Assembly: GCA_041697335.1 (NCBI GenBank)
Contig: JBGUGD010000001.1
Location: forward strand, 79,598-143,597
Direction: 5' to 3'
Source of the DNA: Vampirovibrionaceae bacterium NZW_1234
Lineage (GTDB): Bacteria > Cyanobacteriota > Vampirovibrionia > Vampirovibrionales > JAGQHJ01
Length of the DNA stretch: 64,000 bases
Both the position numbers and the translations under genes were made by a program. Shown piece by piece: positions 19,315-46,771 of the stretch; position 1 is the stretch's first letter, and each line of letters begins with the position of its first letter. Below the pieces are notes generated by a model, which ran no database searches, was not told where the DNA came from, and worked only from the letters and a program-made list of their open reading frames with translations.

Positions 19315-19632
19315 TTAAATGATTTGTGTCCCATCCGGCACGCCGTGATCGCCAAAGCTAAGCCGGATAACGCTTAATATGCTTTCTATTAGCTCTTCCT
19401 GACTTTGGAACTCTTCTTGCGGACTGTCATGAAGAATGTCAGCCAAAACCATGGACTCTGTCTGGGACCATTGGATTTCCAGCGGCCCGATATGTCTCAT
19501 CAATTCAGGCTTGCGGGCCGGGAAGCGAACTTGGGCCAAGGCGTCGTTTAAGCTATCCAGATTGCTGGTAAGGTTTGGCTCAGCCGTATCGGGTTGAGTT
19601 AATTTGGGTTCGTCTTGTTTTGACTTGGCCAT
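19315..19632 (-). CDS. DUF2795-like small protein
   Basis: VRFPARKPELMRHI and an acidic C-terminus resemble the DUF2795 family. Confidence 0.4.
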   Translation of the reverse strand: MAKSKQDEPKLTQPDTAEPNLTSNLDSLNDALAQVRFPARKPELMRHIGPLEIQWSQTESMVLADILHDSPQEEFQSQEELIESILSVIRLSFGDHGVPDGTQII

Positions 19633-19810
19633 GGTGTCTCCCCCCTGTTTTGAGCACTTCGCTGTCCAGACTGTCTCTCTCGGACGTTCTGGTCTTTGAT
19701 TACTTTACCCTACCTGGCGGGGGTGGGTGTATTCACTGAAAGACGGATCACCCCGGAGGGTTCTTTTTCCTATTCTTTTCTATATAGGATGGCGGCGATG
19801 TCCCGACACG

Positions 19811-19843
19811 AAAAAAATCCCTGTGATGTTGCCGTCACAGGGA
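19811..19843 (-). terminator. intrinsic terminator of repeat unit 0 (3' end of the small-ORF transcript)
   Basis: Minus-strand tccctgtga-N8-tcacaggga hairpin followed by U7. Confidence 0.7.
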
Positions 19844-19859
19844 TAGGGATTTTTCCCTA

Positions 19860-19890
19860 CAATCGTACATTGGCTATGGGTTAAGTTAAA
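19860..19890 (-). ncRNA. conserved about 30-nt core element, copy 0 (3'-UTR position of the small ORF)
   Basis: caatcgtacattggctatgg(g/a)t(t/a)a(g)... is shared by three loci, always immediately 5' of a terminator on the minus strand. Confidence 0.5.
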
Positions 19891-19986
19891 GCGAAAATGA
19901 GTAGTAACTGCTACTTAGCCCCAAGATTGCAGGGAAACAACATAGCTCGTGTATTGCCGCCCCAAAGTAGGGGGCGGGTTTCGGTT

Positions 19987-20166
19987 CTAAGCTTCCGTCC
20001 AGAGGCGCTGGTTGCTGTTGGGTGCGCCAGTCAAAAGGTTACCGCTGATCCCACCACCAAAGCTGCTGGCCGTGTCATTGGAGACCCCGTTAAAGCTATT
20101 GCTTGGAGGGAAGGTGGTTTTCATTACGTTTGCTGAACCGCCCATTGCGCTCATACTGCATGCCAT
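19987..20166 (-). CDS. unannotated small ORF, 59 aa, Gly/Ser/Asn-rich (MACSMSAMGGSANVMKTTFPPSNSFNGVSNDTASSFGGGISGNLLTGAPNSNQRLWTEA)
   Basis: AAGGAG RBS 7 nt upstream of the ATG; sigma70-like promoter TTCTTG-17-TATAAG; terminator downstream; falls below the 60-aa ORF-track cutoff. Confidence 0.55.
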   Translation of the reverse strand: MACSMSAMGGSANVMKTTFPPSNSFNGVSNDTASSFGGGISGNLLTGAPNSNQRLWTEA

Positions 20167-20216
20167 TGGTAGACTCCTTTTCTTGTTTCCTACTAACCTA
20201 ACTGAAACGTTATATT

Positions 20217-20245
20217 CTTATAATAATGAATTGTTGAAACAAGAA
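20217..20245 (-). promoter_or_regulatory. putative sigma70-type promoter of the small ORF (TTCTTG-17 nt-TATAAG)
   Basis: Hexamers and spacing read directly from the minus strand, about 50 nt upstream of the RBS. Confidence 0.45.
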
Positions 20246-20410
20246 GTGTCTTCTGGCCTACAAATTTAAAAAGAAAATAAAAAAACGTGGTGGCGTGGGT
20301 TGCATCTTTGCCCGAAAAGCCTCAAGGCATGGGCCATTTGCCTATTGTTACGGTTTCTGGAAGTGAACATTTATGCCTGTAATTTTCCAGGTGCCACAGG
20401 GGGGCTGGAC

Positions 20411-20443
20411 AAAAAAGAAAAACCCTATGGAAGTCATAGGGTT
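20411..20443 (-). terminator. intrinsic terminator of repeat unit 1
   Basis: Minus-strand aaccctatgacttccataggg hairpin followed by UUUUUCUUUUUU. Confidence 0.7.
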
Positions 20444-20445
20444 AA

Positions 20446-20576
20446 CAATCGTACATTGGCTATGGATAAGTCGTTAAGAGTAAGATCGATTTAGCGTGTT
20501 TTCTGTGAGAGTAGAGTTTCGATACTTTTATTATGTCAAATTGATGTGTTGCTTTCTGTCGGGTAGCCAACAAATT
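20446..20576 (-). ncRNA. sRNA-like repeat unit 1 (63-nt conserved 5' block, about 36-nt variable region, conserved 30-nt core, terminator)
   Basis: Near-identical to unit 2 at a 297-300 bp offset; no ORF; terminator orientation fixes the minus strand. Confidence 0.5.
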
Positions 20577-20706
20577 TGTTCAGCGGACTCAAATTCGTCT
20601 TCGGAGTTTATCCGAAGCGTCTGAAACCCTTTTTAGATCTGGGTTTGAGGTGGTTTACATTTCGCAATCATCCTGCTCTCCAAGCGCGTTCCTCTAAAGG
20701 ACGGAC

Positions 20707-20737
20707 AAAAAAAAGAAACCCTATGGTGAGCATAGGG
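20707..20737 (-). terminator. intrinsic terminator of repeat unit 2
   Basis: Minus-strand ccctatgctcaccataggg hairpin followed by UUUCUUUUUUUU. Confidence 0.7.
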
Positions 20738-20742
20738 CGAGA

Positions 20743-20876
20743 CAATCGTACATTGGCTATGGATAAGTCGTTATGAGAGAGAGGTTTAGAGTTTTGGTCT
20801 GAAGAGATGTGTTGAGTTTCGATACTTTTATTATGTCAAATTGATGTGTTACTTTCTGTCGGGTAGCTGACAAATT
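20743..20876 (-). ncRNA. sRNA-like repeat unit 2
   Basis: Same architecture as unit 1; the 63-nt block differs at 3 positions, the core is identical, and the middle about 40 nt differ. Confidence 0.5.
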
Positions 20877-20900
20877 CGACGGACTCCTCGGGTAATCCTG

Positions 20901-20947
20901 AAAAAACCGCCTAAATGCTCTCCACGAGAGGCAAAAAGGCGGTTTAC
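20901..20947 (-). terminator. intrinsic terminator of the 20992..22233 gene
   Basis: aaccgcc-N-ggcggtt hairpin followed by a U-run on the minus strand. Confidence 0.6.
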
Positions 20948-20991
20948 AAAAGTTAAAGATTGAAGGCTTACAGCGAAATCAAGCCCGTCTG

Positions 20992-22152
20992 TTATTTGAA
21001 ATAGGCGCTGACTTGCTTGTCTTCAGCATAACAGCTCCCGTTCCAGCGATAGACATAGATCGGGTGGTAAGGGTCTTTGTCAAACTGGCGAACCACAATT
21101 TCCATCTTGCCGTCGCCATCAATGTCTTCGGTAATATGGGGGCCTTTGTGGGATTTCAGTTCCCCGATCACCTGGTTTTTCCCGTTGAGAATACGAACCT
21201 CATAGGGGGCGTTGGGCGTGCCGGTTAAAAAGAAATTGATGGAATCGGTCGTGCCGTCCTGATCCAAATCCAGCGATTTACTGGTTTTCAGTTGGTTCCA
21301 GTTGACGGGTGTCGAACTGAAGGAGCATGTCTGCGCAACTTCCGGGGGACGAGATGTCGCGGTTGTTGTACTCTGGTCCGACTCTACCGTGTTGCCATCA
21401 GCCATGGACAAGGCCATCAGCGCACTATTGGGGCTGGATGACGTCGCACCGTAGGGAACATAAATGGTCGTCACGTCTTCATTAATTAAGCTGCTATAAG
21501 CTTCATAAGGCTTCAGTCCTTCCAAAATGCGCACATAGCTGGGCCATACACCGGGTTTCATATCATCGCGGTTAAAAATCAGGGCATCTTTCAGCTTGTA
21601 GCCCACATCCATCTTGCGGGTGGTCATGGCATCCGGCGGCGCGTTTTCAAAGATAATGTCCGTATCGACCTGGGCCAAGCCATAGGCCAGGCTGGTATAG
21701 GGGGAGCCGATTTTATCGTTGGCTTTTCTCAGGAAGAAAAGGCCGTTCTTATTGGCTTCCATCACCAGTTGGGCGTATCCATAGTCGAAAAACTTGATGG
21801 GGTCATTTTCATTGGTCAAATAGCGGGCTTTCAAAGCCTTCATCAGCTTTGCACGCTCTTCGGGAATCTGGCCATAGGCTGCATAGGCCCGTCGAAGGGT
21901 CTCCATATGCAGGAGCAGCGAATCGGTCGACGTCATAAACTCATAGGTTCCGTCTGCCGTTTGGACAGCCTGGTCCAGGCCTTCGGCTTGGGGGACACTG
22001 GACACTTCCAACGGAACTGTTCTAAGCAGCATGGGCTTTTCAGTAACCGTGGTTGACGTTGCTTCCAGTGCGACATCTTCAGCCTTGCCGGGTGCCAGGA
22101 GGGCTGTTGTTAATGTTAGCGCCAGCATGGAGGCAAAGGTGGTTTGCTTCAT
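20992..22152 (-). CDS. secreted hypothetical protein (signal peptide; C-terminal DGDG/FG-GAP-like segment)
   Basis: MKQTTFASMLALTLTTALLAPGKA signal peptide; start assumed at MKQ. Confidence 0.5.
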   Translation of the reverse strand: MKQTTFASMLALTLTTALLAPGKAEDVALEATSTTVTEKPMLLRTVPLEVSSVPQAEGLDQAVQTADGTYEFMTSTDSLLLHMETLRRAYAAYGQIPEERAKLMKALKARYLTNENDPIKFFDYGYAQLVMEANKNGLFFLRKANDKIGSPYTSLAYGLAQVDTDIIFENAPPDAMTTRKMDVGYKLKDALIFNRDDMKPGVWPSYVRILEGLKPYEAYSSLINEDVTTIYVPYGATSSSPNSALMALSMADGNTVESDQSTTTATSRPPEVAQTCSFSSTPVNWNQLKTSKSLDLDQDGTTDSINFFLTGTPNAPYEVRILNGKNQVIGELKSHKGPHITEDIDGDGKMEIVVRQFDKDPYHPIYVYRWNGSCYAEDKQVSAYFK

Positions 22153-46504: not shown

Positions 46505-46771
46505 ATGGTTCCGCATTCCAAAGATGAATTGCAACAACGTAAGGAAGAGCTTCAGAAAAACGCTGAGATTGCCTATACGCAAGTTCCAACCCAGGAAGAG
46601 ATGCTGAATGGAGGCAAGCCCGTTGAAAAACCGGCCGATAAAGAAGAGAATCTGAAAAAAACCGAGAAGTCCCAGGAGACGGGGCACAAGCATCACGACC
46701 AGGCGTTAGCCCAGGATATTGATGAGGCGCTTTACGAAGCGGCGCAACAAGGCAATATTGGCGGTGATTAG
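46505..46771 (+). CDS. hypothetical small acidic/lysine-rich protein (88 aa)
   Basis: AGGAGGG RBS 5 nt upstream of the ATG. Confidence 0.5.
   Translation: MVPHSKDELQQRKEELQKNAEIAYTQVPTQEEMLNGGKPVEKPADKEENLKKTEKSQETGHKHHDQALAQDIDEALYEAAQQGNIGGD

Follow-up and report, generated by a model that had tools for sequence, protein, structure and literature searches.

A tandem family of three sRNA-like units in a non-photosynthetic relative of cyanobacteria includes a candidate dual-function RNA with a 59-codon orphan ORF

The ORFs of most known dual-function sRNAs encode fewer than 50 amino acids. Other sRNAs occur as multicopy tandem families, among them LhrC1-5 of Listeria, the NsiR1 array of Anabaena, PrrF1/2 of Pseudomonas, and Qrr of Vibrio, or are embedded in a 3′-UTR, as in the case of CpxQ, DapZ, and SroC. 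The dual-function RNA SgrS has a length of 227 nt and carries the 43-aa SgrT reading frame at its 5′ end, with the base-pairing part and the terminator located 3′; the ORF and the base-pairing part are not necessarily equally conserved, and sgrT is missing in some SgrS homologues (PMC12612679). Here we describe a locus that resembles these three kinds of system in different respects. It lies within a window of 64 kb, by which we mean the whole stretch of DNA that was analyzed, in the 1359-nt gap between a gene for a 105-aa DUF5789-like protein (19632-19315) and a gene for a 413-aa FG-GAP protein (22233-20992). The gap contains three head-to-tail sRNA-like units on the minus strand, designated units 2, 1, and 0, with the following features.

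20706-20872, minus strand: unit 2, with TGT-N10-ACA element at 20872-20857, -10 hexamer CATAAT at 20835-20830, core at 20762-20742, and terminator at 20738-20718
about 20823-20706, minus strand: predicted sRNA of unit 2, ~117 nt
20410-20572, minus strand: unit 1, with TGT-N10-ACA element at 20572-20557, -10 hexamer CATAAT at 20535-20530, core at 20465-20445, and terminator at 20443-20421
about 20523-20410, minus strand: predicted sRNA of unit 1, ~113 nt
20247-20262, minus strand: TGT-N10-ACA element TGTAGGCCAGAAGACA of unit 0, candidate CRP/FNR-type site centered at about -41.5
20220-20225, minus strand: -10-like hexamer TATTAT of unit 0, predicted transcriptional start site (TSS) at about 20213
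about 20213 to 19810, minus strand: predicted RNA of unit 0, ~400 nt
19859-19879, minus strand: 21-nt core CCATAGCCAATGTACGATTGT of unit 0, identical in all three units
19808-19844, minus strand: intrinsic terminator of unit 0 found by terminator scan (19844-19817 plus T-run)
19852-19937, minus strand: 13-bp helix with one G-U pair, found by inverted-repeat search in unit 0 only (19937-19925 with 19864-19852)

Every unit of the repeat combines its own promoter-like element with the conserved core and with an intrinsic terminator, which the terminator scan flagged in all three; this is the layout of a tandem multicopy sRNA family. As in the families named above, the copies are arranged head to tail, possess their own promoter and terminator, and share an upstream site of a regulator type as well as an invariant core. 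Units 1 and 2 have a 66-nt promoter/5′ block with 94% identity in common, and folding indicated that their 5′ bodies, which are G-poor and CU-rich like those of LhrC, are unstructured up to the terminator. The promoters are spaced by 300 and 310 nt, and the terminators by 297 nt between units 2 and 1 and by 586 nt between units 1 and 0. In contrast to the known multicopy families, the three units belong to no Rfam family, and one copy is three times longer than the others and contains an ORF.

The core CCATAGCCAATGTACGATTGT was found to be invariant in the three units, with diverged flanks, and no further copy with up to three mismatches was present in the 64-kb window, where none is expected by chance. 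The terminator helix is 100% paired across the three units, including two compensatory pairs in unit 0, and a covariance model comprising core and terminator matched nothing in the window apart from the three copies. These features would fit the core as the probable base-pairing seed of the family, followed by an intrinsic terminator. A scan of the window for core targets with RNAduplex yielded no convincing candidate, the best duplexes being located outside sense-strand initiation regions. When the window was searched against Rfam at the gathering threshold, only a tRNA elsewhere was detected, and a search of the region 19600-21100 at E ≤ 10 gave no match, including the described dual-function RNA families SgrS, RNAIII, and SR1. 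A 20-mer of the core had no match in JGI metagenome contigs. Judged by these comparisons, the sRNA-like family is new, being absent from Rfam and having turned up nowhere else in the searches made.

Just 3′ of the FG-GAP gene, a hairpin of the form CCGCCT...AGGCGG followed by a T-run was recognized by eye on the minus strand (20897-20945); it had been excluded from the terminator scan by the loop limit. As the FG-GAP gene apparently has its own terminator, transcription of unit 2 by read-through from this gene is unlikely.

The TGT-N10-ACA element, AATTTGTnnGCnAnnnGACA (AATTTGT-N..-GACA), is present in all three units, exactly 21 nt ahead of a -10-like hexamer that reads CATAAT in units 1 and 2 and TATTAT in unit 0. 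The strict motif TTTGTNNGCNANNNGACA occurs only three times in the 64 kb, namely in the three units. Among 127,906 positions compared with the promoter consensus of units 1 and 2, the block of unit 0 was the top non-self match with 25 of 44 positions, a modest margin over the 23 matches of the runner-up. The original prediction had assigned to this region a promoter composed of TTCTTG (20245-20240) and TATAAG (20222-20217) with a spacing of 17 nt. The three units share the upstream layout, and the block is the best non-self match to the consensus, so that the promoter of unit 0 is probably located where it had been placed. For the -10 hexamer we prefer another assignment. The T that is conserved at position 6 is missing in TATAAG, and a scan for consensus promoters did not flag the TTCTTG/TATAAG site; TATTAT, which overlaps TATAAG by 3 nt, is the better -10 hexamer.

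If TATTAT represents the -10 hexamer (-12 to -7), the center of the palindrome would be positioned at -41.5 with respect to the predicted TSS, as in class II sites of the CRP/FNR type, and the -35 region of unit 0 looks activator-dependent. The presence of the same layout in all three units suggests that they are co-regulated, possibly through class II activation of the CRP/FNR type. To our knowledge, the half-sites TGTYRG and CCGACA correspond to no known consensus, and Pfam scans of the large ORFs revealed no gene for a CRP-family regulator in the 64-kb window. The sequence CAnCAATT directly ahead of the -10 hexamer is also conserved in the three units. In addition, a perfect 10-nt inverted repeat, TTCTTGTTTC / GAAACAAGAA, is present at 20180-20189 and 20236-20245 and joins the formerly proposed "-35" hexamer to the sequence directly upstream of the Shine-Dalgarno sequence described below. 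It would form a hairpin in RNA only if the transcript included sequence ahead of 20245, as in the case of read-through from unit 1, and its significance is marginal by a rough estimate.

Unit 0 contains an extra ~280 nt between promoter and core, which harbor a Shine-Dalgarno sequence, an ORF, and a GC hairpin. The terminator spacing of 586-599 nt, about twice 297 nt, suggested a fusion of two 300-nt periods, but this origin was rejected because no residual similarity was detectable and a single 17-nt match was out of register. An origin of the extra segment from a MITE or another insertion was likewise considered; terminal inverted repeats or a target-site duplication were absent. The core is enclosed by the 13-bp helix found only in unit 0, in which the 3′ end of the core (GAUUGU) is paired, and the region 19808-19950 had a folding z score of -4.2. 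According to this structure model, the helix could mask the core seed in the long transcript of unit 0.

The ORF within unit 0 and the neighboring elements are as follows.

19987-20166, minus strand: 59-codon orphan ORF (MACSMSAMGG...RLWTEA) with ATG start and TAG stop, from the ORF list and the homologue searches
20174-20179, minus strand: Shine-Dalgarno sequence AAGGAG, followed by the 7-nt spacer TCTACCA and the ATG
19957-19977, minus strand: 7-bp all-GC hairpin, 9 nt past the ORF stop, without U-tract on the minus strand
19897-20136, plus strand: ORF of 79 aa, from the ORF list
20012-20269, plus strand: ORF of 85 aa, hydrophobic, from the ORF list

The 59-aa ORF was originally predicted from the minus strand together with the arrangement AAGGAG-7 nt-ATG and with the core and terminator downstream of its stop codon. 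All of these elements were recovered: the translation is exactly as given, the Shine-Dalgarno sequence at 20179-20174 precedes the ATG at 20166, and core and terminator follow the stop. The statement that the ORF had been missed by a 60-aa cutoff holds for the ORF list used for that prediction and not for the public protein collection, in which a protein of 59 aa with the identical sequence has already been called as a gene (P0001, NCBI source, on a contig of 177,740 bp).

The strength of the translation signals was assessed in several ways. When the 1359-nt intergenic region was shuffled with dinucleotides preserved, only 0.98% of the shuffles showed an AGGAG-N4-10-ATG arrangement followed by at least 59 codons. 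For a shuffled window of 64 kb, the expected number of such ORFs is ~1.45. The signal is therefore unusual locally, but not decisive for the window as a whole. The real window contains 15 AGGAG-ATG sites with an open frame of 59 codons or more behind them, and 12 of these belong to long or Pfam-supported genes. The opening energy of the initiation region of the 59-codon ORF was 5.3 kcal/mol, compared to 9.8 ± 2.9 kcal/mol for the genes of the window and 12.6 kcal/mol for random positions, which means that the region opens more easily than that of 96% of the window genes. The start codon is located on the sense strand of unit 0, ~47 nt downstream of the predicted TSS. The combination of a perfect and well-spaced Shine-Dalgarno sequence with an unstructured initiation region would make translation of the ORF at some level likely.

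The coding statistics were less clear-cut. At -0.02 bits per codon, the codon log-odds score of the ORF ranks at the 8th percentile among real windows of 59 codons, and 18% of spurious ORFs scored as high or higher; the synonymous-codon score of 0.004 is midway between real and spurious ORFs. In a 3-periodic model, the three overlapping open frames (two on the plus strand, one on the minus strand) scored alike at 0.01 to 0.04, compared to an in-frame mean of 0.114 for genes, so that none of them is gene-like in this respect. GC1, GC2, and GC3 are.42,.58, and.62 in the ORF versus.57,.41, and.58 in genes, i.e., GC1 and GC2 are inverted. Elsewhere in the window, on the plus strand, an ORF of 88 aa (46505-46771) with the arrangement AGGAG-5 nt-ATG and without Pfam match reached a codon score of 0.35 bits per codon, more than any other small ORF between genes, and probably represents a genuine small gene.

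The encoded peptide is of low complexity, with 17% serine, 14% glycine (13.6%), and 12% asparagine, and contains only 4 charged residues among 59. It has a GRAVY value of -0.17 and no transmembrane segment, the maximal Kyte-Doolittle mean over 19 residues being 0.55. AlphaFold returned a pLDDT of 57 without secondary structure, and the peptide is thus predicted to be disordered. The view that it is not a type I toxin was borne out, as a hydrophobic segment is absent. A hydrophilin-like function had also been considered conceivable. Hydrophilins are defined by a glycine content above 6% and a hydrophilicity index above 1, corresponding to a strongly negative GRAVY. The glycine content of the peptide exceeds this value, but its GRAVY of only -0.17 and its 4 charged residues do not agree with a hydrophilin.

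The original prediction had proposed to look for homologous small ORFs in relatives. Searched by word index against 5.8 billion clusters that represent about 15 billion proteins, the 59-aa ORF matched only itself, and HMMER, run exhaustively on 1.84 billion representatives, gave only repeat or low-complexity matches and no homologue. The scores of the two non-self HMMER matches, both in long proteins, were summed over several repeat stretches; P0057, which was inspected, contains a 15-aa stretch repeated 9 times, and owing to this repeat structure both were dropped as homologues. The peptide was also not found in a back-translation scan of JGI metagenome contigs, and it had no match in Pfam and NCBIfam. 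Four loci from the nearest relatives (L001-L004), selected as the surroundings of homologues of the 413-aa FG-GAP neighbor, contained neither the core nor the promoter motif, the peptide, or the sRNA array, and synteny around the FG-GAP gene was not kept in them. The protein searches, the metagenome scan, and the four related loci thus provided no homologue.

The source genome itself appears to be phylogenetically isolated. Homologues of the FG-GAP neighbor have at most 59% identity, the named ones originating from MAGs designated "Cyanobacteria bacterium," "Vampirovibrio sp.," and "uncultured cyanobacterium," so that the DNA probably stems from an organism of Vampirovibrionia type. For the 105-aa DUF5789-like neighbor the protein search returned only the protein itself, and it was dropped as a synteny anchor. 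As this neighbor has a Pfam match and nevertheless finds only itself, the absence of homologues of the 59-aa ORF weighs little.

We consider unit 0 to be a candidate for a dual-function RNA arranged like SgrS, a reading to which we assign a probability of roughly 0.45. It is suggested by the combination of ribosome-loading signals with a 3′ end formed by core and terminator. According to this proposal, three genes would form a tandem family of regulatory sRNAs, with unit 0 as the third and elongated paralogue, whose ~400-nt RNA would carry the ORF in the 5′ half and end with the core and terminator. The product, for which a function of its own is conceivable, would be a lineage-restricted, low-complexity, and disordered orphan peptide. 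SgrS/SgrT, RNAIII/hld, SR1/SR1P, AzuCR, VcdRP, and Spot 42/SpfP are alike in that a terminator-ended transcript contains a small ORF in its 5′ part and, as putatively in unit 0, a base-pairing region in its 3′ part. This likeness is one of sequence layout only, translation and base pairing of unit 0 being predicted, and it does not extend to sequence or structure homology, in keeping with the lack of an Rfam match at E ≤ 10. Moreover, the RNA of unit 0 is longer (~400 nt), and so is its ORF, with 59 aa compared to fewer than 50 in most known cases. Units 1 and 2, which have no ORF, parallel the SgrS homologues without sgrT, with the difference that the versions with and without ORF are tandem paralogues in one genome here and orthologues in the case of SgrS. 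In sharing the regulatory core and terminator with an upstream coding sequence, unit 0 also resembles 3′-UTR-embedded sRNAs, and by analogy with these the GC hairpin past the ORF stop could mark a processing or stability boundary. Here, however, the "mRNA" encodes nothing but the orphan 59-aa ORF, and the core is present in two free-standing genes as well.

Nearly as likely as a dual-function RNA is the explanation that the ORF is fortuitous. Unit 0 would then be a purely non-coding, longer sRNA paralogue or the result of a neutral insertion of ~280 nt, in which the reading frame and the Shine-Dalgarno-like purine run arose by chance and any translation would be functionless. The intergenic region has few stop codons in general, with 6 ORFs of 59 codons or more versus 2.9 expected, and an A/G-rich 5′ leader alone yields both a Shine-Dalgarno-like motif and low structure. 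The ambiguous coding statistics with equal scores for the three overlapping open frames, the ~1.45 chance ORFs of this type per window, the disordered and low-complexity nature of the peptide, and the fact that no homologue of it was found point in the same direction. A chance origin is less easily reconciled with the joint presence of a perfect, optimally spaced AAGGAG and an ATG-started frame of 59 codons or more, seen in only ~1% of the intergenic shuffles, with the position of the start on the sense strand ~47 nt after the predicted TSS, and with an initiation region less structured than that of 96% of real genes; the missing homologues are a weak argument in its favor, given that the Pfam-matching 105-aa neighbor stands alone as well.

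Two further explanations have far less in their favor. A real gene might be located on the plus strand, either the 85-aa ORF or the 79-aa ORF that had already been noted as a competitor and does exist in the ORF list, and the minus-strand RNA would then be an antisense RNA in the manner of type I toxin systems. The 85-aa ORF has gene-like GC1, GC2, and GC3 values of.58,.42, and.62 and a GRAVY of 0.68, and a plus-strand promoter-like site, GTCACA-18-TACAAT, is present at 19834-19863 within the terminator/core region of unit 0, from where it would drive transcription antisense to core and ORF. Promoter-like matches in the region are at chance level (2 found, 1.7 expected), though, and the 85-aa ORF starts with TTG, lacks a convincing Shine-Dalgarno sequence, and crosses the promoter of unit 0. 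The synonymous-codon scores of the plus-strand ORFs (-0.14 and -0.08) are below that of the minus-strand ORF, neither has a Pfam or NCBIfam match, and the terminator-like hairpin at 19957-19977 precedes the 85-aa ORF and falls within the 79-aa ORF; we therefore regard a plus-strand gene as very improbable. Hardly credible is the earlier suggestion of a leader peptide or RiPP, by which a double-glycine-leader or microcin-like precursor would be cleaved behind its 10 N-terminal residues and its Gly/Ser/Asn-rich core be modified or exported. The Gly-Gly at residues 9-10 and the Gly/Ser/Asn-rich remainder are reminiscent of double-glycine, microcin, and RiPP precursors, and with alanine included the composition recalls that of class II microcins. 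Known double-glycine leaders comprise 15-30 aa, end with GG or GA, and show a pattern that is recognized by the C39 peptidase, whereas the leader of 10 aa would be too short and is devoid of the usual hydrophobic/acidic pattern. Precursor families of Pfam and NCBIfam gave no match, the protein searches found no homologous precursors, and Pfam searches of the large ORFs in the 64-kb window revealed no C39-peptidase ABC exporter, YcaO protein, radical SAM protein, or lanthionine synthetase, nor are immunity genes present in the 64 kb. The genomic context largely refutes this class of peptide.

Concerning the origin of unit 0 as a candidate dual-function RNA, one member of the tandem family might have acquired, or uniquely kept, a translated 59-aa orphan, possibly as a frame that arose de novo in an sRNA gene; we advance this with some reserve, as a scenario that is possible but rather doubtful. 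If the ORF is not translated, the locus would amount to a newly delineated sRNA-like family of three copies that share a candidate site for a regulator, and the annotation of the ORF would stay hypothetical. If it is translated, an sRNA-only form and a form combining sRNA and ORF would adjoin each other under one type of promoter, which would offer a natural experiment on the origin of dual-function RNAs or of de novo small proteins. For the non-photosynthetic relatives of cyanobacteria, a literature search retrieved no paper that deals with sRNAs, and the family described here would, if true, be among the first regulatory RNA families proposed for these organisms.
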